Shown one piece after another: positions 1-14,077 of a stretch of DNA of 64,000 nt. The stretch covers positions 728 through 64,727 of the forward strand of contig CAJTLE010000001.1 of the NCBI GenBank assembly GCA_910577085.1. Direction: 5' to 3'. Source of the DNA: an uncultured Allobaculum sp. (GTDB lineage: Bacteria > Bacillota_I > Bacilli_A > Erysipelotrichales > Erysipelotrichaceae). The notes beneath the pieces were generated by a model, which saw nothing but the letters and a program-made list of their open reading frames with translations, did not search any database and was not told the origin of the DNA. Positions within the stretch are counted from its first letter, which is position 1; every line of letters starts with the position of its first letter. Made by a program: the position numbers and the translations under genes.

Positions 1-12
1 CCTCCTGAACAT

Positions 13-1617
13 ATGTATAATTTGTTAAAACATTATTATACATATCCTTGTTTTTCAAGAGGGAAAGCGGGTTATAGCTTTATATGTAGCGATGTCTTCG
101 TTTTGATTAGCGCTTCCTGTGTATATAGTGGGGAAATCAGGTTACAAAGCCGTTACTATCTCGACAACAATCTGGCCCGCAAGATTCATACCCGCATCCG
201 TGATTACTCCATGATGGGTGAAAAGCCAGAAGCCGCCCGTTATTTTGGCGGTCTGTTTGATCAGGAGATGACCTCATTTTATAAAGATGCGGTCATGGAT
301 TCATATGGTCTGGATCTGAATGTGGATATCCTGACGGCGATTGAAAAAGAAGCCGAACTGCTTGGCCTTTACAAGGATGATCCGGATGAAATGCGTCTGA
401 TGGATCAGTATGTCCGCGATGTTATCCGCACGACCCGTGATCTGAGCTGTCCATTTATTGAAACGCCGCTTGGAGAAACCAGAGCACCGGTTTACAGCTG
501 CACCTATAACACTTCGCTCATCCCGCCAAAGGGCGACGATTCGCTGCGCAGCCGCCTGATTCAAAGTGAACTGGCCAATCTAGGCGGCACTCCGGATGAT
601 GACATTCCAGAAAACATGATCATGTTCTACAAGTCGTTCTATGGTCTGCGCGCCAATGAGCTCAGCAAGTTCGCTCCGCCGATTCATGACGAAACCCATG
701 ACCGGCCAGGCGGCGAGTACTTCAAGGCTTACTACGAACTCGTGGATGGTCTGTTCCCGATTCCAGGTAAGAGTTCTGGCATCAGCCCGCATCTGGATAA
801 ATGGTGGCATCTGGTTACCAAAATGCCGGATCTCGATGAAGGCAACCAGGACAAACTGTTCCATGAACAGTTTGCGGCTTTCTTCTGGGCCATGTTGATT
901 GGACTGATTGAACTCGATCAGATTTCGGATGAGCAGTGCCAGTACAAGATCAACCATGTGCGTCTGCGCTTAAACAATGATCCGCGCCTGAAATTCAACA
1001 GCAGCACACTGGTGGTTTCCAATGGAACACCATGCGACAAGCTGTATGAAGTTCTCGATGCGATCTCGATTTATCCAGCCCTGATTCACCGCATTCTGGA
1101 CTACGTCAACAATGAAATCGCCTATGACATCAATATGAATGGCGATCTGAAAGATCGTCTGTTATGGGCCAATCTGAAGAAATTTGAAATTGAAGAGCCG
1201 CTGATTGGTGTCAACCACGAAAAATCAACGTGCATTCTGGATCTGCCGCTGCTGCTGCGTAAGTCCAACAACACGAAGACTTACTTTGAAGAAGATTCCA
1301 TTGGTCTGTTGAAAGTGATTCTCGATGAGCTCAGACATTACTTCGAACTGAATATCAATGAAAAAGATGCGCTCAATGACTACATCGATTTCATCAAGAC
1401 AGAATATGCCCGCAGTCTTGTCAGCTGGGAAAAAGAAGAACAGGCCATTCCGGCAACGCTGACTGGTTCTTTATTTAACAGCTGGTATGAAACGCTGGCT
1501 CAGTACTTTGAAGATCTCGGCGCCCGTCGAGATGCCAGAGAGATCCGTTCGAAAGCGGAAGAACTCAAACAGAAGTACGACGCACAAAAGGGAAAAGGTG
1601 CGGATGCAAACGCCTAG
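13..1617 (+). CDS. Uncharacterised hydrophilic protein, component A of the four-gene operon. The 5' end is uncertain: the ORF is open to the window edge, and the first ATG after the AT-rich leader is at 211.
   Basis: A 534-codon ORF. Nt 1-140 are AT-rich with rare codons and a TATAAT at 16-21, and coding-like composition starts near 150. No Walker A or other family motif recognised. Gene B follows 30 nt downstream with its own SD. Confidence 0.6.
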   Translation: MYNLLKHYYTYPCFSRGKAGYSFICSDVFVLISASCVYSGEIRLQSRYYLDNNLARKIHTRIRDYSMMGEKPEAARYFGGLFDQEMTSFYKDAVMDSYGLDLNVDILTAIEKEAELLGLYKDDPDEMRLMDQYVRDVIRTTRDLSCPFIETPLGETRAPVYSCTYNTSLIPPKGDDSLRSRLIQSELANLGGTPDDDIPENMIMFYKSFYGLRANELSKFAPPIHDETHDRPGGEYFKAYYELVDGLFPIPGKSSGISPHLDKWWHLVTKMPDLDEGNQDKLFHEQFAAFFWAMLIGLIELDQISDEQCQYKINHVRLRLNNDPRLKFNSSTLVVSNGTPCDKLYEVLDAISIYPALIHRILDYVNNEIAYDINMNGDLKDRLLWANLKKFEIEEPLIGVNHEKSTCILDLPLLLRKSNNTKTYFEEDSIGLLKVILDELRHYFELNINEKDALNDYIDFIKTEYARSLVSWEKEEQAIPATLTGSLFNSWYETLAQYFEDLGARRDAREIRSKAEELKQKYDAQKGKGADANA

Positions 1618-1647
1618 AAAGACTGATTCAGAAAGGGGATTTCGAAC

Positions 1648-3585
1648 ATGTTGAATGTTCTGATCATGAACCGCGCGACGCGTGATTCCTTTCTGGAGCA
1701 GCCGGTTCTATATGCCAACATCGTCAATCGGCCGGATATCGAAATCTGCGGCTGGATTGAGTCTGGATCCACGCTGGAAACGGCTCTGCCGGCGATCGAT
1801 GAACTGGTCGGGCCCCATCAGAAATGGCGGGCCATTGTGATCAGTTATGAAGACGATGGCGTCATGGAAAAATTCGCCACTGATCCGGAAAATCCATTTG
1901 ATTTTGACGGCAGTCCCTTTGCCTTATACCAGCAAAACCCCATTCCACTGGTCAGGCTGACGCATCTGCTTAAAGGTCTGCCGCCGCTGGAAAAGAGATA
2001 TGTCGAAGAACAGATTGTCGACAAGACCGGGATGCCAAAGATGGTGTTTACCGAGCAGCCGCCTGATGAAGCGGTGGCCATGCAATGGAAACAGTTATCC
2101 GACCTGTATGAAAACGATCTGCGTGAACCCGAGCAGATCGTTCTCATACGCCGCCGTCTGAAACCCAAAGACCCATCCAAACGCCGTCTGGAAAATATGT
2201 GGAGCCTGCCTGAAGAAATCGAAAGTTCCCGGTTTGCGGACCGCAATGGCTATGCGCCAGGATGCCGGTTTCTGTGTGTGGACTACACCCGCCAGGGAAA
2301 ATACCAGACGATTCAGGAAGCCTTTGAATTCTGGGTGAACAGTACGCTGATGGCCACGATTGAAGTGGATGGCAGCACCTTACAGGCTGGAAGACTGTAT
2401 CGTCTGGAGACGCGGATGGACAAAAATTCGCTGACCAGTCTGTTTCGGATTCTGGATGCCAGGCTGACTAAAGTACAGAGCAGTTATCTTGAACATTCTG
2501 CCCGGCTGAAAGAAAAGCAGGCCAGTCAGGAGGAACGACTGCCGGCTTATCAGGTGACGCTGCCTGAACTGCATCTGGAAACGGGATCGTTTGATGAAAG
2601 TGAAGAGATCTCCCTGAACTTTGCGATGTTTCCGGCCCGTAAGATGGACCCGATTCATGAGTGGCAGGAATATCTGACACTTGTCCAGCAGGAATATCAG
2701 GCGTCGATTAAAAAAATCAGCCGCTCGTTTGACCGGGCGGCAGAGAAATTCCATGACAAGATGCATGTCAGTGTCGAAAAGGTCGAACTGCTCAATCAAT
2801 GGCAGAAAGAAGATCTGGCCGAAGAACTCCAGAAAGAAAAGCTTGCCTGGATGGAAACAGGCGCCAGTCTGCCGGCCACGGGCATTGTCCGCAATCAGAA
2901 ACTTCAGAAAACGGATGATACGGTCCGCTGGCTGTTAGAAAACCAGGCTGATCGGCGCGATGTTGGTTTCGTAGAAGGCAGCCTGCTTGTCATTGGGCTG
3001 CTGGTGGGACTCATTGGATTTGTTTTTCCGATTCAACGAAACCAGCAGGCCTGGGCGATGATTTTCTGGATTGTGCTGACCCTGCTTGTCGTCTGTGGTG
3101 TGGGATGGCTGAGTCTGTTTTTGTGGAACCGTCAGGCAAGAAATCTGGCTGCTTCGTATCGTGATGAAATCCGACAGGCTGCAGCTGCGATGAACTCGGA
3201 TACCAATGGCTTTGCGAAATATTTAGAGCAGGCCGTTAATCTGGTTCGCGGCTCGCAATATCTGCGCCTGAGCGACACGAAAGCATTGATGGGCCAGGTG
3301 CAGGATCAGTCCACCCTCTTTAACAACCACCAACAAGTCGATCTGCTGACGGATCTGCAAAATAACCTGCATACCCTTCAGGCTGCCAACCATATCTTGT
3401 TGGAGGAAAATGAATTTCAAAGGGCATTGCCAGAACAAAACTGGGAAGATGTGGATGAAAAAAATCTGCTTTTGATTGAAGAAGATCCCGTCCAGGTGGA
3501 AGTCAATCACTCCGGATTTCATGTTGAAAGCCCATGGCCGTTTGTCAGCCGTCTGATTGTGGAACGGGAGGAGCTGTATGAATAA
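1648..3585 (+). CDS. Uncharacterised membrane protein with a central TM hairpin, component B
   Basis: ATG 1648 is preceded by an AAAGGGGA SD; 645 aa. Two adjacent hydrophobic helices (SLLVIGLLVGLIGFVF and AMIFWIVLTLLVVCGVGWLSLFLW, nt ~2970-3125) lie between a ~440-aa N-terminal and a ~150-aa C-terminal hydrophilic region. No catalytic motif recognised. Confidence 0.75.
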   Translation: MLNVLIMNRATRDSFLEQPVLYANIVNRPDIEICGWIESGSTLETALPAIDELVGPHQKWRAIVISYEDDGVMEKFATDPENPFDFDGSPFALYQQNPIPLVRLTHLLKGLPPLEKRYVEEQIVDKTGMPKMVFTEQPPDEAVAMQWKQLSDLYENDLREPEQIVLIRRRLKPKDPSKRRLENMWSLPEEIESSRFADRNGYAPGCRFLCVDYTRQGKYQTIQEAFEFWVNSTLMATIEVDGSTLQAGRLYRLETRMDKNSLTSLFRILDARLTKVQSSYLEHSARLKEKQASQEERLPAYQVTLPELHLETGSFDESEEISLNFAMFPARKMDPIHEWQEYLTLVQQEYQASIKKISRSFDRAAEKFHDKMHVSVEKVELLNQWQKEDLAEELQKEKLAWMETGASLPATGIVRNQKLQKTDDTVRWLLENQADRRDVGFVEGSLLVIGLLVGLIGFVFPIQRNQQAWAMIFWIVLTLLVVCGVGWLSLFLWNRQARNLAASYRDEIRQAAAAMNSDTNGFAKYLEQAVNLVRGSQYLRLSDTKALMGQVQDQSTLFNNHQQVDLLTDLQNNLHTLQAANHILLEENEFQRALPEQNWEDVDEKNLLLIEEDPVQVEVNHSGFHVESPWPFVSRLIVEREELYE

Positions 3586-6500
3586 TCTCCAGCAGCTTTT
3601 CCTTCATCTTCTCTCCTGTATCGCCGGCTTATATGCCCTGTGCGGACTTGGACAGCTGTATCCGCTCAAAAAGCCCAACCGTCCTTTGGAAGGGGTCATG
3701 GTACTGGTTGCCATCGGGTACAGTCTGATTGCTTCCTGGGTGCTGCTTGACCATGCCAGTCAGCTGGTGGCCATGCTTCCAGACTGGCTCTCTCACAGCG
3801 CCGGCATTGATCTGCCTGCACTGTCGACAATGTTTCTGTTTGGCTATGCGCTGGTGCGTTTTGCGGTCGATGGAATTTTGCGCGGCCTGCAGTCACATAA
3901 TGAGCTGTTGGCGTTTTGCGCCCTTGATTTTTATGAACAGGATCCCACCAGCCGCCAGTGGCATTTAAAACAGGGGCTGGCCGGATTTCAGCGGTTCATT
4001 CGATGGACGTACCTGGCCGCTCTTATTATGAGTGTTCTGTTTTTAACGATCGTCTGGACCTGGCCGAATGCCCAGATTGGCTGGGTCAGCTGGCTGCCAG
4101 TCGCTTTGTTGCCGATCTTGATGGCGATTAGAGTCTATCTGGATGGCCTGCCGCCCTTGCTGGATCCAAAACGAAACTACAGCGGATCTGGCATTGATGC
4201 GCTTGATATCTGCAACTATTATGGTCTGCGCTCTGTATATGAAGAAAACCTGCCGGAGCCCTTATTGACCTCGACCGCAGGCTGTGATCTGCGGCATCTG
4301 ACCAGTGCGATCAATCTGGTCGAAACCTGGCGCAAAAATGGCGGTCAGATCGAACGGATTGCCGCTGAGTATTATGCCCTGCATCAGCGTTTTGCCAAAA
4401 GCGATCCGGATTGTGCCGCGGCTTCGATTGATCTGCTCAAAGGCCGCAATGTAGTGTTCTTCAACCCGTTTTACCGGGATCTCAGTCTGTATCTGACGCT
4501 GCCACTGGCTTCGACTTTACTGGCCGGGGATCATGTCCTGATTCTTTGCGGCCGCAAAAGTCTGGAACAGCCGGCTAGAGAATGGATTGAAGAAGCAATT
4601 GGTTCGCAGACGCGCACGGAACACCTGTGGACGATACGACAGATTGATGATCAGGATGAACCTTGTCAGATCGGAATTATGACGTTTAACCAGATCTACA
4701 ATCATGCCGTTTTGAAAAACAATCAGGACTTCTTCCATAAAGTGCAGTTTGTCATTTTGCTTGAGCCATCTAAACTGATTGGAACCAGTCAGACGGCTCT
4801 GTCCATTATTGCCTCCAATCTCGGAGAGCCTGACCGCCGGCCGGTTTATGCGGTATGTGACCGTCAGACCACGGGTCTGATCGATACACTGTCGCATGTT
4901 TTAAAAAGTGAATTCATTGAAGCCTGTGCCAGTCCGGTTCCACATTGCCTGTACACCGCGATGTTCTGGGATGCCGATGGGGAATTCCGTCGTCAGGAGT
5001 TTTTTGATCACCAGAGCCGGTATCTTGGCAATGGTCTGGAACTGGCCGCTCTGGCCATCCGCTCCCAGGTGCCGCAGGTCAAATGGATTGGGGAAACCAA
5101 AGTTCCACTCAAAGATCTGCGCCGGATTGCCGGGCAGAGCTATCAGAACCTGTGCCGGTTCATGAACATCAAAGTCAGCCAGAATGCGTTGTTTGAGCGG
5201 GTCGATTTTGTCGACAGCCTCTGGCAGCCCGAAATGGAAAAACGGCCATTTCTGATTGTTGAAGATGAATTCAACAATCTCTTTGCGACGCTTCATCCGT
5301 ATCTGGCCAGAGGAACCGGACAGTCCTTTGTCCATATGCTTTCGGAAAACTATCTGCTTCGCGATTACATGAAGGAAAACCGGGAAGTGTTCGCAAGCAA
5401 TCCCCAGGCTGTTCCTTCCTTGATTCCGGATTATGCAAGAACCGAACGCAATACGATTTTGAAACTGCTTCTGTTGATGAACATGAAGCCAGTCGATGAA
5501 GAAACCATCGCCAGAGAACTGCGGATGACGGGCATTTTAAACCGGGATCTCGAAAACGAAATCAACCGGCTGGTCCGAAAGTATACGCCGGCCGATGAGA
5601 CGATCTTTACGATCAACCGCCGCAAAAAACTGGTGAACGAATTTACTCAGAAAGTGGTCGTTGAATATTCGATCAGTGATGAAGCTTTCAGCCAGTACTT
5701 CCAGTCCTCGTTGAAAAATGCCTATTTTGTCGTTGAAGATGAACTGGCCAACCGTGAGTATCTCGATGCCAGACTGTATGGGCAGATCGTTCAGGCCATT
5801 TTGCCAGGGCAGTTTCTGACGTATGGCGGCAAGTATTATCAGGTTCATTCCATCAACCCGATGGATGGCGTGATTCTCCGACGGGCTTCGGATCTGTATG
5901 AAGGCCGTGAGTACTATCGCCAGAAGCGGATTTATACCATTACCACCACTCCAGCCAATGAGACAGAAAGTCCGTCCAACGATGCGATAAATCCAACGGA
6001 TGAGATCACGGCGGAACTGGTCAGCTTCCAGCAGATCGGTTCCATTGAACTGCGTCAGGAACGCCACAATTTTTCAGTGGAAACCCCTGGGTATCTGCGG
6101 CTGCATGATAACCATGATCTTGAACATGGTGTGCCTTACACCTTCCAGCAGGAAGGCCGACAGGAGATTTTCAACCGCTCGTATTTAAGTAAGACACTGT
6201 TACGGGTGAAGATGCCGGAAATGGATACACAGGATGCTCTGACCTTCTGTGTCCTGCTCAATGAACTGTTTCGCAGTATCTATCCGGAAAACTGGCCATA
6301 TCTTTGCGCAGCAGCAGTTTATGATCCACAGGATGTCGATCCATGGATGAGCTATCTGGTTCCTCAGGTCAAGGGAAACTTTGAAGAGGGCGAAGTGCTG
6401 ATCATTGAAGACAGTGAAATGGATCTGGGACTGATTGATTCATTCTGCCGAAATTTTGACAGCCTGATGGGCATTGTCTATGACTATCTGGACTGGCTGG

Positions 6501-6835
6501 AAAATCCACAGGTGGAAAGCAGAGAAGATACAATCTATGAAGTGGATTTCGATGCGTTGATTGAAGAGATCAGGGAACGTAAAAAAGAAGAAGCCAAAAA
6601 GAAAAGCTTTTTCGCCCGCTGGAGAGCCAGACATTCCAAAAAGGACAAAGACAAGCCAGATCAAGCGGATTCAAATTCCGATGATGGTCCAGGCCATAGT
6701 GCAGATTCAAAACCTGACCAGCCAAAAGAAGAGGACACTTCGGCCTCTGATGGCAAGACCACACAATCCAAAACGGAACAACTAGTCAAATTTACAAGAC
6801 CCGTTCCGGATGATTTAAATCAGCCAAATTCTTGA
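3578..6835 (+). CDS. Uncharacterised 1085-aa polytopic membrane protein with a large cytoplasmic body (possible degenerate helicase-like core) and a disordered charged tail, component C
   Basis: The track ORF is 3557-6835. ATG 3578 is preferred because GGAGG lies ~8 nt upstream and the start overlaps the gene B stop (ATGAATAA). About 5 hydrophobic helices occur in the first ~190 aa. No GxxxxGK[ST] anywhere. The C-terminal ~95 aa are rich in K/E/D/S. Confidence 0.75.
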   Translation: MNNLQQLFLHLLSCIAGLYALCGLGQLYPLKKPNRPLEGVMVLVAIGYSLIASWVLLDHASQLVAMLPDWLSHSAGIDLPALSTMFLFGYALVRFAVDGILRGLQSHNELLAFCALDFYEQDPTSRQWHLKQGLAGFQRFIRWTYLAALIMSVLFLTIVWTWPNAQIGWVSWLPVALLPILMAIRVYLDGLPPLLDPKRNYSGSGIDALDICNYYGLRSVYEENLPEPLLTSTAGCDLRHLTSAINLVETWRKNGGQIERIAAEYYALHQRFAKSDPDCAAASIDLLKGRNVVFFNPFYRDLSLYLTLPLASTLLAGDHVLILCGRKSLEQPAREWIEEAIGSQTRTEHLWTIRQIDDQDEPCQIGIMTFNQIYNHAVLKNNQDFFHKVQFVILLEPSKLIGTSQTALSIIASNLGEPDRRPVYAVCDRQTTGLIDTLSHVLKSEFIEACASPVPHCLYTAMFWDADGEFRRQEFFDHQSRYLGNGLELAALAIRSQVPQVKWIGETKVPLKDLRRIAGQSYQNLCRFMNIKVSQNALFERVDFVDSLWQPEMEKRPFLIVEDEFNNLFATLHPYLARGTGQSFVHMLSENYLLRDYMKENREVFASNPQAVPSLIPDYARTERNTILKLLLLMNMKPVDEETIARELRMTGILNRDLENEINRLVRKYTPADETIFTINRRKKLVNEFTQKVVVEYSISDEAFSQYFQSSLKNAYFVVEDELANREYLDARLYGQIVQAILPGQFLTYGGKYYQVHSINPMDGVILRRASDLYEGREYYRQKRIYTITTTPANETESPSNDAINPTDEITAELVSFQQIGSIELRQERHNFSVETPGYLRLHDNHDLEHGVPYTFQQEGRQEIFNRSYLSKTLLRVKMPEMDTQDALTFCVLLNELFRSIYPENWPYLCAAAVYDPQDVDPWMSYLVPQVKGNFEEGEVLIIEDSEMDLGLIDSFCRNFDSLMGIVYDYLDWLENPQVESREDTIYEVDFDALIEEIRERKKEEAKKKSFFARWRARHSKKDKDKPDQADSNSDDGPGHSADSKPDQPKEEDTSASDGKTTQSKTEQLVKFTRPVPDDLNQPNS

Positions 6836-6902
6836 GGCAGATTCGTTATAAGCAAAACCAACAACACCAGTCAGCAGCACAACAGGAAAGGATGGGGTAG
6901 AG

Positions 6903-7826
6903 ATGAACGAGGAAGAAAAGACACCATTTGATACCACTGCCTATCTGCGCTTTGGAAAAGATCAATTGCCTGACTATCTTCGACCTGGAAAGCTTCGTGA
7001 ATTTCTGGAAGACAACGGCTATGCCGGCAATCCGTTAACCAAAGCCCGCAAAGCCCCGCAGACCGTTTTCAAGGATCTTGAAATGACGGACGAAAAAGGC
7101 CAGCCGATTCTCGCTTCTTCCTGTGATTTCTGCGGCCAGCGCATCAATGGTGTTTCTTACCAGCAGTTAGCCGATGGCCGGATCCGCTGCAATGAGTGTG
7201 CTTCTACAGCCATTGAAAACCTTGAAGAATTCAAACTGCTCTTTGAACAGTGCATCCAGCTGATGCAGGATTTCTATCAGGTGACTTTCCAGGTTTCCCT
7301 CGATATCCGGACGACAGACAGCGATGAAATTGCCCGCCGGACCGGAATGAAAGGACCGGAAGGAATGGGCAAAAAAGTAAGAGTGCTTGGCTTTGCGCAG
7401 AGTCAGAATGGCAAACATACGGTCGTTATTGAAAATGGCAGCCCAAGACTGGCTTCGATTGATACGATCGTCCATGAAATGACCCACATCTGGCAATCCA
7501 TCTCCTGGAATGAAGCAGAGTTTGAGCGGCTGTACCACATGGGAAACAAGAAGAAAAATGCACTGGCCAGGCTGCTCGTGCGTGAAGGCATGGCCGTCTG
7601 GTCGGCCCTTCAGTTTCTTTACCTGATTGGAGAGACAAGTTATGCGTCTCGTCAGGAAGCTCTGATGGAAAATCGCAAAGATGAATATGGCCTTGGTTTT
7701 CTGTTGTTTCGCGAGCAGTTTCCTTTGATCCGAACGACTGATTTCCTGTATCGGACACCATTTACCGTCTTTCCGCCGATTCCACCAGAAACGATCCGAC
7801 AGATTGTCAACCATATCTTTGCCTGA
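6903..7826 (+). CDS. Zinc-ribbon plus HExxH (gluzincin/MA-clan-like) metallopeptidase, component D
   Basis: ATG 6903 follows a GGAAAGGATGGGG SD. CDFC-x18-CNEC (C74, C77, C96, C99). HEMTH at residues 191-195 (nt ~7473), with Glu 33 residues downstream in the REGMAVW context typical of HExxH...EGxAxW/Y peptidases. Confidence 0.7.
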   Translation: MNEEEKTPFDTTAYLRFGKDQLPDYLRPGKLREFLEDNGYAGNPLTKARKAPQTVFKDLEMTDEKGQPILASSCDFCGQRINGVSYQQLADGRIRCNECASTAIENLEEFKLLFEQCIQLMQDFYQVTFQVSLDIRTTDSDEIARRTGMKGPEGMGKKVRVLGFAQSQNGKHTVVIENGSPRLASIDTIVHEMTHIWQSISWNEAEFERLYHMGNKKKNALARLLVREGMAVWSALQFLYLIGETSYASRQEALMENRKDEYGLGFLLFREQFPLIRTTDFLYRTPFTVFPPIPPETIRQIVNHIFA

Positions 7827-7877
7827 ATCTTTCCTATGGAAAGACCAAAACGAATTGAATAAACATCAATCAAATTG

Positions 7878-7916
7878 AGCACCTGATTTTCCGCCCGGAA
7901 AGTCAGGTGCTTTTTG
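7878..7916 (+). terminator. Rho-independent terminator of the four-gene operon
   Basis: The arms AGCACCTGATTTTCCG / CGGAAAGTCAGGTGCT (16 bp, 1 mismatch) are followed by TTTTT. Confidence 0.8.
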
Positions 7917-8339
7917 TCGTGAAGGTCTGACAGAAAATGAAAGGGCTGTGCGAAAAAATTATCAAATGCCGGGCTTAATGTTTCTACTTTATCCATATTG
8001 GACATTTTGATTCCATTTTTACGTTGTCCATATGGTCACGATGGGTTGGGGGTCGGATAGAGAAGACAGAATTTTTAAAAAGTCAAAACGGGAACGCTTC
8101 ACCCTGCCGCATAAAGACAACATTAAGGGTAAAAAAGGCGTACCTTTGGGAGAATCGTAAAATCAGAGCACTGGTGAATAATGTCCGGATCAGATTCAAA
8201 GAAACTGAATGATTTGAGTGATGACAAATAAGGGAATTAAATTGTGAACAGAATGTCAAAATCCATGTAAATGCGAATCCGGAAGGGGGCAGGGATGCTA
8301 TACTTTGCCTGACAGATGAATAATTAGAGGTAGAAAAGA

Positions 8340-9899
8340 ATGTCAGACATTAAACCTGTAGACTACGAATCATTTAAGAAGAAGATTCCTCTTTTTAAAG
8401 AGAAATCTGAAGAGTTCTATAACAAAACTATGAACATGAAAGACTATAAGTCTTTCTCTGGAAAATACGGAAGCTATGCTCAGCGCGGCGGCAAAAAGAA
8501 CATGCTTCGTTTACGTATGACCGCTGGTAAAGTCACTCCAGATAAACTGCACTTTGTTGCGGATATGGCAGATAAATATGCGATCGAACCGATCCATTTT
8601 ACAACCTGCCAGACCATCCAGCTCCATAACCTCGACCTCGATGCGGTTGTGGATATCATGGACAAAGCTCTCGATCACAAGATCGTCTGGTATGGCGGCG
8701 GCGGAGACTATCCACGCAACGTCATGTGCTCCCCACTTTCCGGCGTTGAAGAAGAATACTTCGATGTAATGCCTTATGCGGAAGCATCCGCAAACTTCCT
8801 GCTGGACTTCATCGATAAGGAAAAAATGCCTCGTAAGCTGAAAGTCGGCTTCTCGAATAACCAGAAAAACGAACCACATGCCACTTTCCGTGACTTAGGC
8901 TTTGTCGCAAGACCAGATGGCAAATTTGATGTGTATTGTGCCGGTGGTCTGGGACGCGATCCAAAACTGGGTGTCCTGGTTGCAGAAGATGTAGATCCAA
9001 ACGAAATTCTCTACTACATCGAAGCCATGATCCTGATGTTCCGTGCATATGGAAACTACGAAAACCGTGCGAAAGCCCGTACCCGCTATATGCAGGATGT
9101 TTTAGGTGCCGATGGCCTGCGCAGAGAATTCGCAAAATATCTGGCTCAGGTCAAAGAATCCAAAGACCTGACGCTGACCGATATCGAAATTCCAAATATC
9201 ACCAAAAAAGGTGAAGGAGAACCTCTCGAAGAATCCTTCATCGTTCATAAACAGAAACAGCCTGGACTGTACGCTCTGCTCTATCATCCACGCGGCGGTA
9301 TTGTAACCAAAGAAACAGTTCGTGCTCTGTCTGATGCCATTGATGGCATGGAAGATGTAGAAGTTCGTCTGAAACCAGATGAAGGCAGCTACATCATCAA
9401 CCTGACTGCGGATGAAGCCCGTAAGATCCTGTCGATCATTGAAGCGGATGCAGCAACCAACGAATTCGAAACTTCTGAAGGCTGCATCGGTGCAACCATC
9501 TGCCAGGTTGGTCTGCGTGACTCTCAGGGTGCTTTAAAAGCAGTTCTGGATGCAGTCAAAGAAGCTGGCGACATTGCAGATAACGCTCTGCCTCAGATTC
9601 ATATTTCCGGATGCACATCCAGCTGTGCTGCCCATCAGATTGCTCCAATTGGTTTCCGCGGTAACTTAAAAGTTGTCGATAAAAAACCTGTTCCTGCTTT
9701 CTCGATGTTTGTAGAAGGCGATGATATTCAGGGCAATGAAAAACTTGGTGAAGAAGTCGGAATTATCGCGGAAAAAGATCTGCCTGCATTCCTGGTTAAA
9801 CTTGGCCGGGATATCACCAAATCGGGTCTGTCTTTCGAAGAATGGACAGATGCCAATCCAAACGGTCTGGTTGAAGAAGCACAGGAATTCTTCCTTTAA
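8340..9899 (+). CDS. Sulfite/nitrite reductase family hemoprotein (siroheme/[4Fe-4S] type)
   Basis: 519 aa. Carries the cluster/siroheme cysteine motifs CX5C (CIGATIC) and CX3C (CTSSC). Siroheme biosynthesis genes lie nearby. Confidence 0.75.
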   Translation: MSDIKPVDYESFKKKIPLFKEKSEEFYNKTMNMKDYKSFSGKYGSYAQRGGKKNMLRLRMTAGKVTPDKLHFVADMADKYAIEPIHFTTCQTIQLHNLDLDAVVDIMDKALDHKIVWYGGGGDYPRNVMCSPLSGVEEEYFDVMPYAEASANFLLDFIDKEKMPRKLKVGFSNNQKNEPHATFRDLGFVARPDGKFDVYCAGGLGRDPKLGVLVAEDVDPNEILYYIEAMILMFRAYGNYENRAKARTRYMQDVLGADGLRREFAKYLAQVKESKDLTLTDIEIPNITKKGEGEPLEESFIVHKQKQPGLYALLYHPRGGIVTKETVRALSDAIDGMEDVEVRLKPDEGSYIINLTADEARKILSIIEADAATNEFETSEGCIGATICQVGLRDSQGALKAVLDAVKEAGDIADNALPQIHISGCTSSCAAHQIAPIGFRGNLKVVDKKPVPAFSMFVEGDDIQGNEKLGEEVGIIAEKDLPAFLVKLGRDITKSGLSFEEWTDANPNGLVEEAQEFFL

Positions 9900-9948
9900 T
9901 CAACAGACTGAAACGTTCAGACCAGAAAACTGAATTTGAATCTCATCG

Positions 9949-9976
9949 AAAGGCTTCGTGAAGGCGAAGCCTTTTT
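9949..9976 (+). terminator. Rho-independent terminator after the reductase gene
   Basis: The hairpin AAGGCTTCG-TGAAGG-CGAAGCCTT is followed by a T-run. Confidence 0.7.
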
Positions 9977-10201
9977 GAGTGGACGAGTATACGGGCGTTA
10001 ACCTGCTGTAAGAATCTGAGTGATTCGAAGCGGCAAAATGCCCGGAAAGGATAAAATAAGGTCGTTATTGTCAGACCACAGGCAAAGAGTCTGTGCCAGA
10101 AACCATGCAGTAAATCTTTGCCAGACAGGTAGAAGATCTTTGTCAAACGGGTCTGATCCAACAATTTAGAAATACAACAATACAGAAATAGAGGAGGTTC
10201 C

Positions 10202-11221
10202 ATGAAAATGTTCAAATCACAGGCTTACTGCGCTCTGCTGGCAGCAAGCCTGATTCTTTACGGCTGCTCTTCCAGTCAGTCTTCCACCACATCAAGTGCA
10301 GGCCAGAGCTCAACCACAGCTTCTTCCAGTGTTGAATCCAAAACTGATCAGTTTTCCAGTGCCGTTTCCAGCTCTTCAGATACCGAAACGATTACCCTGG
10401 TGGATGACCTGGACCGGACCGTGGAATTTGAAAAGCCGCAGCGGGTTGCCGTTCTGATTGGCAGCTTTGCGGATGAATTTGCCAATGCGGGTGGAGAGAA
10501 TCTGATTGTTGCCGCCCCACACGATACCTTTACCCAGTTTGATCTGGATCTCAAAGATGCAGCCGATCTTGGTGAGGTCAAAAATATCGCTCAGGAAACC
10601 CTGATTGCCGCTGAACCGGACCTGGTCATTGCCAGTGCCAAAAATGACAGCCAGAAAAAGATGCTGGAAGTCCTGGAAAATGCCAATATTCCGGTCCTCT
10701 ATTACGATGTGTCCAGCTTCGACGACTATCTGCGCACCCTCAAAGCCATGACAACCATTACGGGAGATACAGAAGCGTATCAGAAAAATGGTCTGGATCA
10801 GCAGGAAGCGATCGAGGCCATCCAGAATACCGAACGCAGTGAAACGCCAAAAGTTCTGGCCGTTCGTGAAACCGGTAAGGGTGTAAAAGCCTTAGGATCA
10901 GAGAACAGCCTGCTTGGTCAGATGCTTGCGGATCTGAAAGCAGAAAATATTGCGGGTGAAGGCGGACTGGATACGTTATCCATGGAAGAAATCCAGATGC
11001 AGAATCCAGGTGCCATTTTCTATGTTGCGCAGGGGAAAGATCAGGAAACAGCCGAACAGATGGCTGAGCAGCTGTTTACTTCGGATGCCTGGAAAAATCT
11101 CGATGCTGTCAAAAACGGCCGGGTCTATGTACTGGATCAGAAACTGTACAATTTAAAACCAAACGCAAATTGGGCCAGTGCACTTAAAGATCTGGAATCT
11201 ATGTTGTATCCATCAAAATAA
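10202..11221 (+). CDS. ABC transporter substrate-binding lipoprotein (FhuD/BtuF-like, iron-chelate/corrinoid/heme class)
   Basis: Signal peptide with lipobox LILYGC, followed by an S/T-rich linker. EPDLVIAS-type motif of periplasmic binding protein class 8. Followed by a FecCD permease and an ATPase. Confidence 0.8.
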   Translation: MKMFKSQAYCALLAASLILYGCSSSQSSTTSSAGQSSTTASSSVESKTDQFSSAVSSSSDTETITLVDDLDRTVEFEKPQRVAVLIGSFADEFANAGGENLIVAAPHDTFTQFDLDLKDAADLGEVKNIAQETLIAAEPDLVIASAKNDSQKKMLEVLENANIPVLYYDVSSFDDYLRTLKAMTTITGDTEAYQKNGLDQQEAIEAIQNTERSETPKVLAVRETGKGVKALGSENSLLGQMLADLKAENIAGEGGLDTLSMEEIQMQNPGAIFYVAQGKDQETAEQMAEQLFTSDAWKNLDAVKNGRVYVLDQKLYNLKPNANWASALKDLESMLYPSK

Positions 11222-11358
11222 TGAACAGAGTCGAAACTCTGAACAGATATAGATTCATGAGCAGATAAATGCTGTAAACGGATAGATGTCATAAACAAAT
11301 AGACATCATCAATTGATACCCATCATAAACAGAAACTGGAAAGGAGAGCTGGTTAGAC

Positions 11359-12423
11359 ATGGATGATCATTCATCCTCTCAAAAGAGACCCAGAACAGAT
11401 GGTCCCCCATGGGATCATCGAAAAAAAGATCATTCGAATCCAAATCGGGATGTGAAAGCAACGGGCCAGACGGGTCATCCGGGGCGCATTCTGTTTGTTT
11501 CCGTCTTGCTTTGTGCGGCCTGTTTTGTGCTCTCCTTACTGGCCGGACCGGCAGGATTGCTGGATCTGCGTAATCCAACCATGCAGACCATTTTGCTTCA
11601 TATGCGGCTGCCACGGGCTTTAGGCTCACTGCTTGCCGGCAGTGCATTGGCTGTAAGTGGTGCTCTGATTCAGACGGTGCTCAACAACCCCTTGGCCTCC
11701 GCAAACTTGATCGGGATTAATTCCGCCGCCGGATTTTTTACCATTCTTGCGGGAATTCTCTTTCCGACGATGGTGGGCCTGCCCTCGATAGCTGGATTTT
11801 TTGGGGCGATGCTTTGTGCAGGAATGATTCTGCTTTTGATCTGGAAAAAGCAGGCCAGTAAGCTGACGATCATTCTGGCCGGGCTTGCCATCAGTCAGGT
11901 TTTTTCGGCCGGGATCGATCTGTTGACGGTCATTGTCCCAGATGCTCTGAGCGGGTATGCCTCGTTTAAAATCGGTTCACTGGCTTCGATTTCTTTATCG
12001 AAGGTCGGTTATGGAGCCATTTTGATTTTGCCGGCGCTGGCTCTGGCGATTTTTTGCAGCAGACAGCTCGAAATGTTTTCGCTGGGGGCGTTACAAAGCA
12101 AAGCCCTTGGATTTCCGATCCGACGCTGGACGGTCATCTTTCTGGCTTTAGCCGCCTTACTTTCGGCGGGAACGGTCAGCTTTTGTGGAATGCTTGGCTT
12201 TGTCGGCCTGATTGTCCCGGCCTGGCTGCGTCGGTTTCATCTGTCGGTCAAGACCTACCTGCTGGAATGTCTGTTGTGCGGGGCGATGCTGGTGTGTCTG
12301 GCCGATGTGTTAGGCCGCGTGATTCTGATTCCGTGGGAACTGCCGGCTGGACTCTTGCTTGCTTTGGCGGGTGGTCCGTATTTCCTGTATCTGCTATTAG
12401 GAAGAAGGAATCTGGATGCTTGA
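11359..12423 (+). CDS. FecCD-family ABC permease (start codon uncertain)
   Basis: RLPRALGSLLAGSALAVSGALIQTVLNNPLASANLIGINSAAG is the classic FecCD/BtuC signature, with multiple TM helices. The first ~43 residues of the track ORF are hydrophilic and may not be translated. Confidence 0.85.
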   Translation: MDDHSSSQKRPRTDGPPWDHRKKDHSNPNRDVKATGQTGHPGRILFVSVLLCAACFVLSLLAGPAGLLDLRNPTMQTILLHMRLPRALGSLLAGSALAVSGALIQTVLNNPLASANLIGINSAAGFFTILAGILFPTMVGLPSIAGFFGAMLCAGMILLLIWKKQASKLTIILAGLAISQVFSAGIDLLTVIVPDALSGYASFKIGSLASISLSKVGYGAILILPALALAIFCSRQLEMFSLGALQSKALGFPIRRWTVIFLALAALLSAGTVSFCGMLGFVGLIVPAWLRRFHLSVKTYLLECLLCGAMLVCLADVLGRVILIPWELPAGLLLALAGGPYFLYLLLGRRNLDA

Positions 12424-13195
12424 AGTCCGTTCTCTGAATGCCGGATATCCTTCCCGGCTTATTTTGAAAGATATCAATGCTTCGTTTGAGGCGGGCAAGC
12501 TTTATATTCTGCTCGGTCCGAATGGATCGGGAAAAACAACCCTGCTCAATACGATCGGCGGCTGGCAGAAGCCTTTTGGGGGTCAGGTTCTGGTCGATGG
12601 CAAAGATCTGTTTGAACAAAGTGACCGCCAGCGTGCCCATCTGACTGGCCGCATGGCCCAGCAGACTGCTTCGCTTTCCATGACGGTTTCCCGCTTTGTT
12701 CTGCTTGGCTGTTACGCCAATCAGGCCTGGATCAATCCGTACTCGCTTGCCGATTATCAGAAGGTGGATCAGGTTCTTACGGCGTTAAAACTGACGGATC
12801 TGGCCGATCGCCGGATGGACCAGATTTCTTCCGGTCAGCGTCAAAGGGCAGCGATTGCTCAGGTGCTCGCCCAGGATCCGGTCTGCCTGTTACTCGATGA
12901 GCCAGGCAGTGCTCTGGACCCTTCCGCCCGGTTTAAATTGATGGAAACGCTGGTCAGTCTGCGCTCGGCTGATCGGGTGCTGCTGGCGATTGTGCATGAT
13001 CTGGATCTGGCTCTTCGTTATGGAGATGAACTGCTGGTTCTGGATCAGGGACAGCTTGTTTTTCAGGGAACCGGAGATGAGCTGGTCAGAAGCCATGTTG
13101 TTGAGGATGTCTTTGGTCTGGTCATCAAAGACTGGGATCCAGAGACCCGCACCGGTCGGATTTTCCCGGCCGCCTGTGAAGGAAAATGGATCTGA
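12416..13195 (+). CDS. ABC transporter ATP-binding protein
   Basis: Walker A GPNGSGKTT, signature SSGQRQR and Walker B LLLDEP. An 8-nt overlap with the permease gene. Confidence 0.9.
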   Translation: MLEVRSLNAGYPSRLILKDINASFEAGKLYILLGPNGSGKTTLLNTIGGWQKPFGGQVLVDGKDLFEQSDRQRAHLTGRMAQQTASLSMTVSRFVLLGCYANQAWINPYSLADYQKVDQVLTALKLTDLADRRMDQISSGQRQRAAIAQVLAQDPVCLLLDEPGSALDPSARFKLMETLVSLRSADRVLLAIVHDLDLALRYGDELLVLDQGQLVFQGTGDELVRSHVVEDVFGLVIKDWDPETRTGRIFPAACEGKWI

Positions 13196-13296
13196 TTTCT
13201 GGTCCAGAATTTTCAGGTTCTGAACTTTCTGTTCCTGGCTCTTTCGTTCTTGAATTCCGTATACAATCCTTTAAATTTGAACTGAATATTCATCAG

Positions 13297-13331
13297 ACAG
13301 TCTGACTTGGATTTGGTCAGGCTGTTTTTTT
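13297..13331 (+). terminator. Rho-independent terminator of the ABC operon
   Basis: ACAGTCTGAC ... GTCAGGCTGT (10-bp stem with one G-T pair) followed by TTTTTTT. Confidence 0.75.
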
Positions 13332-13540
13332 GTGGTCTGATCATTTGATGGCTCAAGAAAAAGGGCGTTTGAAAGGAGGGGAAAGGGGAAGAAAGGCAGG
13401 AAACGGGCCCCTTTTGAGGACGGACGAGATACAGGATGGAGAATTTGTTCAGACGAACTAACCAAAACGGTTGATTTTGTGGCGAGATGGGTGGAAAAGT
13501 ACGCTACAATGAGAAAACGCACACAAGGGAGGGAAGGAAT

Positions 13541-14077
13541 ATGACTGAAATTAAAGCAATCTGTGGCGATATTACCGAGGATCATGGCATGATGGCGATC
13601 GTCAATGCAGCCAATACCAGTCTGCTTGGCGGCGGTGGCGTGGATGGAGCCATTCACCGGGCTGCTGGACCTGAACTTCTTGAAGAATGTAAGACACTCA
13701 ATGGCTGCCCAACTGGACAGGCTAAACTGACAAAAGGTTACAATTTACCCGCTGCCTATGTCATTCACACACCTGGCCCACGCTGGCGCGGTGGAAATGA
13801 GAAGGAAAGAGAACTGCTGGCAGACAGCTATTGGAACTGCCTGCAGGTCGCTCTGGACCATCAGATCAGTTCGGTTGCGTTTCCATCGATTTCAACAGGG
13901 ATTTATCATTTCCCATTGCGGGAAGCCTCAATGATCGCTATTTCGACGGTAAAGCGTTTTGTAGATCACAATCCGGACGCTTTTTCGCAGATTCTCTTTG
14001 TCCTTTTCGATGACAAAACCCGGCACATGTACGATAAAGCCATTCACCAGGTCTGTTCAGCAGAGTCTGTCAGCTGA
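13541..14077 (+). CDS. Macro domain protein (O-acetyl-ADP-ribose deacetylase / ADP-ribose-binding, YmdB-like)
   Basis: IVNAANTSLLGGGGVDGAIHRAAG macro-domain signature. ATG 13541 follows a GGGAGGGAAGG SD; the track ORF starts earlier, at 13487. Confidence 0.85.
   Translation: MTEIKAICGDITEDHGMMAIVNAANTSLLGGGGVDGAIHRAAGPELLEECKTLNGCPTGQAKLTKGYNLPAAYVIHTPGPRWRGGNEKERELLADSYWNCLQVALDHQISSVAFPSISTGIYHFPLREASMIAISTVKRFVDHNPDAFSQILFVLFDDKTRHMYDKAIHQVCSAESVS

Follow-up and report, generated by a model that had tools for sequence, protein, structure and literature searches.

A stand-alone zinc-module and zincin-type gene closing an FtsZl1 operon in an uncultured Allobaculum species

Gene D and its conserved motifs

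We analyzed a stretch of 64,000 nt (in the following called the window) from an uncultured Allobaculum sp., a member of the Erysipelotrichaceae (contig CAJTLE010000001.1), with a focus on gene D, the last of a row of genes called A to D here. Gene D is an intact open reading frame (ORF) of 307 codons, and the same gene is called in the near-identical contig L007, one of the loci collected for comparison. It begins translation on its own, because it lies 67 nt past the stop codon of C with its own ribosome binding site (RBS), GGAAAGGATGGGG. An intrinsic terminator rated strong begins 50 nt 3′ of D, consistent with its placement as the last operon gene in the sequence-only reading, an annotation made by a model without database searches. 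Long antisense ORFs overlap D, for example at 7167–7814 on the minus strand; the frame of D is the conserved one.

Positions 6886–6898, plus strand: RBS of D, Shine-Dalgarno-like, 5–17 nt 5′ of the ATG, read from the sequence.
Positions 6903–7826, plus strand: gene D, a stand-alone, soluble zinc-module and zincin peptidase of 307 amino acids, assigned by its ORF and motifs.
Positions 6924–7058, plus strand: N-terminal segment of the D module, residues 8–52, with the pattern YLxFG...L..G...ARK and a pLDDT of 36–63.
Positions 7122–7199, plus strand: C4 zinc module, C74-x2-C77-x18-C96-x2-C99, with four invariant cysteines and weak zinc-ribbon, treble-clef, and LIM matches.
Positions 7215–7637, plus strand: minimal gluzincin core, residues about 105–245, with a backing helix, a three-stranded sheet, an active-site helix, and a glutamate helix.
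Positions 7431–7445, plus strand: ENGxP, a strand motif in the core, residues 177–181.
Positions 7473–7487, plus strand: HEMTH, residues 191–195.
Positions 7584–7586, plus strand: codon of E228, within the core.
Positions 7877–7918, plus strand: intrinsic terminator at the operon end, with a 16-bp stem (7 GC pairs), a 4-nt loop, and a T-run, the stem and T-run being placed at 7877–7912.

Translation of 6903–7826 yields cysteines at positions 74, 77, 96, and 99 plus C117, a single HExxH at H191-E-M-T-H195, and REGMAVW at residues 227–233, which makes the glutamate residue 228. The coordinates and residue numbers given beforehand were thus exact. No hydrophobic segment of 19 residues was found in D, hence no membrane span, and no signal peptide either, in agreement with its earlier description as a cytoplasmic protein that lacks both.

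A word-indexed search returned 33 relatives of D at 36–99% identity, and an exhaustive profile search returned 933 clusters (at 50% identity) with a maximum e-value of 1e-3, at least 350 of which have e-values of 1e-30 or lower. Scanning one genome per species, we found a D relative in at least 286 species, with a patchy taxonomic spread over Clostridia, Erysipelotrichaceae, and Microbacteriaceae. Cultivable carriers are, for example, Lachnoclostridium sp. An131, Brotonthovivens ammoniilytica, Microbacterium koreense, and Leucobacter salsicius. A tblastn search of sequenced plasmids and phages gave no matches to D. In a motif alignment of 23 sequences (36–73% identity) the invariant positions are C74, C77, C96, C99, H191, E192, T194, and H195, together with W197, Q198, E228, G229, M230, A231, and W233 as well as E177, N178, G179, and P181 of the ENGxP motif; HEMTH and the four cysteines are invariant in both alignments of D. 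The CxxC...CxxC, HExxH, and EG motifs are kept jointly in 234 of 237 full-length D domains. These motifs are not due to chance, and the predicted ligands are conserved among homologs. The stand-alone gene is kept across at least three Erysipelotrichaceae species and is under purifying selection, with ratios of nonsynonymous to synonymous substitution rates (dN/dS) of 0.06 in the comparison with a relative at 91% identity and of about 0.10–0.13 for relatives at 73%. Residues L15, G18, L35, G39, A48, and R49 of the N-terminal segment are invariant or nearly so in the 23-sequence alignment. This segment is also kept in proteins in which C and D are fused, and the D profile begins there; it may be a docking element.

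An AlphaFold2 model of D (pLDDT 79.5, pTM 0.74) starts with an ill-defined helical segment (residues 1–60), followed by a small, beta-rich zinc module whose second CxxC spans the junction of a strand (94–96) with a helix (97–101). This modeled arrangement fits the treble-clef-like ribbon predicted from the sequence. The further order is helix 107–125, strands 133–138, 163–168, and 171–177, and helices 182–201 and 216–241. HExxH sits in helix 182–201 and E228, within EGMAxW, in helix 216–241, 32 residues past H195; a C-terminal helical bundle closes the model. Foldseek searches against the Protein Data Bank (PDB) returned 3o0y, SPRTN (6mdw), an M61 aminopeptidase (7xyo), IrrE/PprI, the IrrE-like domain of PrpR, and jannalysin, and searches against viral models (BFVD) returned IrrE-like, SprT-like, and M61 proteins with a best e-value of 8e-5. 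All informative neighbors are zincins, though the matches are weak.

Profile searches point the same way below threshold. With Pfam, NCBIfam, PADLOC, and PHROGs, no match to D, B, C, or the partial A rose above threshold, and PDB sequence searches with D alone or with D and C–D profiles gave only noise (L1, L37a, LIM, low-complexity). Among ten diverse D domains, however, sub-threshold matches to clan MA families recurred: DUF6782 in nine, BSP in seven, DUF6055 in five, and DA1-like, M78, M1, and SprT-like in two each. The best scores for DUF6782 (PF20573) were 15–18 bits against a cutoff of 27, and the best e-value of a single member, over families that include DUF6782 and BSP (PF04450), was 2e-5. 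The affiliation of D with clan MA and its gluzincin pattern, with a C4 zinc module upstream, is well supported by the conserved motifs and the weak fold and profile matches, as the sequence-only reading had it. Its further suggestion of a Peptidase_MA_2-like protein did not hold up: PF13485 gave no match in D, the ten diverse D domains, or 28 C–D proteins at e-values up to 1–5, and the clan MA matches all stayed below threshold. Membership in any named peptidase family, housekeeping families included, is not supported; D represents a peptidase family without a Pfam or NCBIfam model.

Among known zincins, the gluzincins of the M1, M61, and Peptidase_MA_2 type (HExxHxW...EG[FM]A) share with D the HExxH followed by W and the glutamate in an EGxA helix. 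A strand with EN immediately precedes the active-site helix of D, whose fold matches include an M61 aminopeptidase. In contrast, the spacing from His to Glu is 32 instead of 18, D lacks GAMEN at the M1 position, M1 matched just two of ten D members at an e-value of 0.14, and D has a minimal core (about 140 amino acids) instead of the build of a multi-domain aminopeptidase. DA1-like proteins (PF12315) combine LIM zinc fingers with HEMMH, and D likewise has a zinc finger followed by a small HEMxH zincin, yet the matches (two of ten members, best e-value 0.0028) were sub-threshold and the context is unrelated. DA1 is eukaryotic and ubiquitin-regulated. The SprT/SPRTN/Wss1 and IrrE/ImmA (M78) proteins have a small zincin core as in D (6mdw with a probability of 0.97, 3dte, and many viral models), and some of them possess an accessory zinc subdomain and ligand-controlled activity. 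However, the zinc subdomain of SPRTN follows the protease while that of D precedes it, TM scores are 0.2–0.3, and the SprT and M78 models of Pfam matched two of ten D members at e-values of about 0.1–0.2.

The operon and the fusion of C and D

The genes upstream of D are arranged as follows.

Positions 142–1617, plus strand: "A", the 3′ part of an FtsZl1/Tubulin_2 gene, codons 682–1173, with 100% protein identity to residues 682–1173 of the L007 protein.
Positions 1648–3585, plus strand: gene B (family B5), 645 amino acids, with two transmembrane helices at residues 438–494.
Positions 3578–6835, plus strand: gene C (B12 core), with N-terminal transmembrane helices, a superfamily 2 (SF2) helicase-like cytoplasmic body, and a disordered K/E/D/S-rich tail.
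Positions about 6512–6832, plus strand: disordered tail of C, from about residue 979.

Near-identical contigs such as L007 match the window at 99.5% identity, starting at its position 142, and reveal what lies beyond its edge. There, the genes encode proteins of 794 amino acids (with a faint VWA signal), 1173, 645, 1085, and 307 amino acids, the second of which carries Tubulin_2 (PF13809) at its N-terminus with an e-value of 9.6e-60. "A" corresponds to the C-terminal 492 residues of this 1173-amino-acid protein, and the GTPase domain is outside the window. In full, the operon thus reads vWA-like–FtsZl1–B–C–D, where the vWA assignment relies mainly on a 2010 paper (see below), the sequence signal in the 794-amino-acid protein being faint. 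The sequence-only reading had called it a membrane-protein operon; B and C are indeed membrane proteins, but the set is a vWA-FtsZl1 system and "A" the C-terminal part of a tubulin-like protein.

We searched the ORFs of 93 loci with profiles of each operon protein and found the order FtsZl1–B–C–D in 77 of them, plus the vWA-like gene wherever the flank reaches that far. The other loci are on truncated contigs or show local decay, and the order held wherever upstream DNA sufficed. B lies between FtsZl1 and C in 84 of the 93. A SLATT-like pore domain in the B protein of the window (e-value 0.0026) was rejected after it appeared in just one of 14 B homologs; five of the 14 had a sub-threshold match to the NCBIfam "MAG1210 family protein" (best e-value 7e-4). 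In the Microbacteriaceae (Microbacterium and Leucobacter; L060, L066, L082, L083) the five-gene operon occurs with a split D about 37–39% identical to that of the window, which points to lateral transfer between phyla.

The vWA/FtsZl1 operon was described by Makarova and Koonin (2010, Biol Direct 5:33, PMC2875224), whose Additional file 5 records, in Ruminococcus lactaris, vWA (732 amino acids), FtsZl1 (1136), B5 (678), and B12 (1418), and the same gene set for "Bacteroides" capillosus. The gene order in that table (vWA COG2304, FtsZl1 of about 1140–1180 amino acids, B5 of about 660–680, and B12 of about 1420–1435) is also the one found here. Judged by architecture, lengths, taxon, and annotation (RUMLAC_01526, BACCAP_04121), B appears to be B5, C and D together would be B12, and D its zinc finger and zincin module, which is fused there and a separate gene of 307 amino acids here. 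The core finding is thus not new, since both the module and the operon were recognized bioinformatically in 2010, and the window contributes a split-gene member of a known module. The table of that paper is silent on the fissions, on the resemblance of C to helicases, and on the association with FtsK and toxin genes described below. New here are how often and how independently the fissions recur, the helicase-like fold of C, the addition of more protease-like domains where D lies, and a linkage to FtsK, WXG-like, and toxin genes in one large clade. Our literature searches turned up no experimental work on FtsZl1/Tubulin_2 systems, nor any on a tubulin-vWA-zincin defense system.

To describe the relationship of C and D we used 80 species-representative loci, 76 of which were informative (four were truncated or undecidable). 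C and D form one ORF in 66 of them (about 87% of the informative loci) and separate ORFs in ten, so that the window carries the rarer, split form. Fused proteins measure 1450 amino acids at the median and contain transmembrane helices, with the D module at the C-terminus behind a disordered linker of 25–336 residues (median 136); independently found homologs of C, too, are nearly all 1300–1500 amino acids long with a C-terminal D module. This fusion in most species argues that C and D act together physically and supports the functional tie to C suggested in the sequence-only reading.

A neighbor-joining tree of D domains, which is crude, places the split loci in no fewer than four distinct clades: the Erysipelotrichaceae together with the L002 group, the Microbacteriaceae, L011 with L056, and L005 with L064 and L086. 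Most loci come from metagenome-assembled genomes (MAGs), where some splits could be frameshift errors, but the splits in Erysipelotrichaceae and Actinobacteria recur across species. The linker remained part of C in Actinobacteria and the window, went with D in L002 and L028, and was divided between both in L005 and L086. Because the break points differ by lineage, the K/E/D/S-rich tail of C in the window is best read as the former interdomain linker, and not thereby as the substrate of D that had been proposed. Splits in at least four clades at varied break points also imply that tethering is dispensable while association is not.

Further modules accrete at the position of D. C–D proteins of 1850–2050 amino acids occur in L062, L068, L070, L074–L076, L078, L079, L081, L084, L088, L089, and L092; these long forms belong to Acutalibacteraceae, and the one scanned (L089) has a Transglut_core domain, transglutaminase-like with a cysteine-protease fold, after the zincin. 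The protein P0049 has two zinc-module and zincin units in tandem.

The partner C was modeled with a pLDDT of 75, with transmembrane helices within residues 1–190 followed by a large body that is partly alpha/beta and partly beta-rich. The best Foldseek match of this body is the DUF1998 helicase MrfA (6znp_A, e-value 6e-18 over 758 columns, target-normalized TM score 0.53), and others include Hel308, Pol-theta helicase, Lhr, Brr2, Ski2, RecQ5, and HamB, with 242 SF2 helicase matches at a maximum e-value of 1e-3. Neither hidden Markov model (HMM) nor PDB sequence searches detected a helicase in C. At the places expected for motifs I and II, located by strand-loop-helix order and not by residue-level structural alignment, C has "GRxS" and "FVxxxEPS" instead of GxGK[ST] and DExH. 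From its model, C looks like a membrane-anchored SF2-fold protein similar to MrfA and Hel308, of doubtful ATPase competence, and is probably a pseudo-helicase.

Proposed role of D

Taking these observations together, we consider it fairly likely that D represents the C-terminal module of B12 (zinc finger and gluzincin type) in free-standing form and is an active cytoplasmic metallopeptidase, working on C or beside it. The cytoplasmic side is suggested by the missing signal peptide of the stand-alone form and by the four cysteines, which suit a reducing compartment. There, D would work as a zinc endopeptidase at the cytoplasmic membrane face, as a subunit of an assembly of C, B, FtsZl1, and the vWA protein. 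A flexible tether would hold it at the platform formed by C and B, and where the gene is split it would dock to C non-covalently, most plausibly via the zinc module and/or the conserved N-terminal segment. Tethering or docking would bring D near its substrate, putatively the roughly 800-residue C-terminal extension of FtsZl1, the vWA protein, B, the tail of C, or a client of the system, and proteolysis may be the regulatory or output step. Proteases held at a membrane complex and acting on its components or clients are known from the C39 peptidase of ABC exporters and the mycosin MycP of ESX systems. These are functional analogies without a claim of homology, as they are Cys and Ser proteases with folds unrelated to that of D.

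Several points weigh against this proposal. The fold matches of D are weak (best PDB e-value 0.016, TM scores 0.2–0.35), no peptidase model of Pfam or NCBIfam reaches its curated threshold, and no substrate candidate could be singled out. HExxH has been lost in three of the 237 homologs, so that a role without catalysis is at least sometimes tolerated; P0168, P0158, and P0176 keep the four cysteines with a degenerate active site (HLLTN, HELTR, or neither HExxH nor the EG motif). Moreover, positions 1–141 of the window have no match in the near-identical contigs L007–L009 or in L013, and homology to FtsZl1 sets in at position 142, codon 682 of 1173. An interruption or rearrangement of the FtsZl1 gene in this genome could account for this, as could an assembly junction at the window start. 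Because positions 1–141 are unrelated to the orthologous gene, the system might be inactive in this genome. A repeat of the first 141 nt, which would have suggested the end of an insertion sequence (IS), was found neither elsewhere in the window nor in the collected loci, and Rfam gave no match to a group II intron or structured RNA at the window start or within positions 1–8400 at e-values below 0.5.

The degenerate active sites and the break in FtsZl1 homology would also suit a non-catalytic adaptor with a zincin fold or, for this genome, an operon that has been inactivated and has left D as a remnant. Loci with signs of decay or dispensability exist: L001, from an Erysipelotrichaceae MAG, has an ISAZ013-type DDE transposase (2593–3825) inside FtsZl1, L015 and L055 have a split B, and L069 has no C. 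However, 99% of homologs keep the metal and catalytic residues, dN/dS does not exceed 0.13, the window has intact reading frames for B, C, and D, and near-identical strains possess an intact tubulin gene. We consider an adaptor or remnant highly improbable.

Another explanation follows from the linker itself. D could be a self-directed maturation protease that cuts the linker or tail of C or the C-terminal extension of FtsZl1, with the split genes mimicking the cleaved state. The linker is long, disordered, and highly variable, and natural fissions inside it in several clades show that the separated state is functional; this would also agree with the tail of C as the partner suggested earlier. 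Yet the linker, of low complexity, shows no conserved site. Split lineages keep the catalytic residues under purifying selection although loss would be expected if linker cutting were the sole job, and their retention where the linker is no longer covalent argues against such a sole function. We regard pure self-maturation as very unlikely.

Besides the GTPase, the zinc module and zincin is the sole recognizable enzyme of the operon and thus its most direct experimental handle. Fusion and fission with C indicate the partner for co-expression, and the fold of C and the FtsK and toxin linkage offer testable ideas on function. Operons with FtsZl1 (Tubulin_2) have a wide distribution among bacteria and archaea.

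Downstream genes and the wider system

Looking 3′ of C–D in the 80 species loci, we found in 32 of them a gene for an FtsK/SpoIIIE ATPase of 1160–1200 amino acids without transmembrane helices, on the same strand at a gap of 14–60 nt (L012, L016–L018, L020–L024, L026–L030, L032–L043, L045–L047, L050, L093, and L095–L097). In many of these loci the next two genes encode helical proteins of about 93–101 amino acids, one with a faint T7SS_ESX_EspC match, followed by toxin cassettes. In the one toxin inspected, an ADP-ribosyltransferase of L095, the first ~100 amino acids are homologous to the small protein called "LGPH", and an ORF of 61 amino acids follows. Among 131 downstream ORFs the most common Pfam domains are TIR_2 (8), ADPrib_exo_Tox (5), Transglut_core (5), and LRR_8 (4), then Gln_amidase (3), ART (3), WHH (2), and Colicin-DNase (2), and TIR-type PADLOC models match downstream ORFs correspondingly. 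This association is clade-specific, as the FtsK-like gene and the cassettes are absent from the DNA seen of Erysipelotrichaceae, Actinobacteria, and Acutalibacteraceae.

Such neighbors raise the possibility that D is the processing protease of an export or toxin-delivery machine, in which vWA, FtsZl1, B, and C would form a type-VII-like membrane platform and cargo would be trimmed or set free on the cytoplasmic side. The FtsK/SpoIIIE gene, the two small helical proteins, the toxin N-terminus homologous to "LGPH", and the wealth of TIR, ART, Gln_amidase, WHH, Colicin-DNase, and LRR domains downstream all favor it. On the other hand, the window and its Erysipelotrichaceae relatives have D without these genes, no canonical type VII secretion system core genes were identified beside the operon, no cleavage motif is known, and the adjacency could simply mean two neighboring systems. 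We consider this role unlikely.

D might also serve an immune (intracellular conflict) system as its effector or activator protease. The helicase-fold body of C would then detect foreign nucleic acid at the membrane and license the tethered D, much as DNA activates the SprT/SPRTN zincins, to cut a protein of the host or of an invader. FtsZl1 systems were proposed to act in membrane remodeling (PMC2875224), whereas related GTPase-centered tubulin and vWA neighborhoods of Firmicutes and Actinobacteria have been interpreted as conflict systems (Kaur et al. 2020, PMC7159879); a phylogenetic study of 2023 set Tubulin_2 aside as divergent and assigned no function. An immune role would suit the MrfA/Hel308/HamB-like fold of C, the SPRTN and SprT-like or IrrE-like zincins among the structural neighbors of D, and the TIR and other effector-type genes nearby. 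The patchy taxonomy, the IS insertions in the tubulin gene, and one locus beside T4SS-coupling (type IV secretion system) and integrase genes point in the same direction. However, PADLOC-DB 2.0 gave zero matches for "A", B, C, and D of the window, full-length FtsZl1, vWA-like fragments, and fused C–D, and the clade-specific FtsK-like neighbor alone matched, to generic models of the FtsK/HerA type. C lacks canonical Walker A and DExH motifs and a helicase HMM match, no nucleic-acid-binding feature was identified in D, the neighbors in the window are housekeeping genes, and there are no phage or plasmid copies. Immunity therefore appears quite unlikely as the function of D, and the suggestion of an invader protein as substrate found no direct support.

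Considering the operon as a whole, it is conceivable, if somewhat unlikely, that vWA–FtsZl1–B5–B12 is the core of an undescribed membrane machine for polymorphic toxins, either for type-VII-like export or as an effector-deploying immune complex. If so, the zinc module and zincin would be a processing or licensing protease on a pseudo-helicase anchor, and the tubulin-like GTPase an assembly or force-generating filament. The clade concerned is large and belongs to the Clostridia, with two WXG100-like helical proteins of ~95 amino acids and ADP-ribosyltransferase, TIR, glutamine deamidase, and nuclease toxins.

In L093 (positions 1–2422) and L096 (positions 1–2177) the operon adjoins mobile-element genes. 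One of these loci has a TraG/VirD4-like T4SS coupling protein, a ClpP-like protease, and an HTH_3 regulator, the other genes for a phage-type integrase and rve transposases.

No FtsK-like ATPase gene or WXG-like "LGPH" gene was found in the 64-kb window. Here, the terminator behind D is followed by sulfite-reductase-like, ABC-transporter, Macro-domain, and siroheme genes. Those at positions 8340–14077 (sulfite/nitrite-reductase-like, a set for a periplasmic-binding/FecCD/ABC transporter, and Macro-domain) are ordinary genes shared with related Erysipelotrichaceae contigs.

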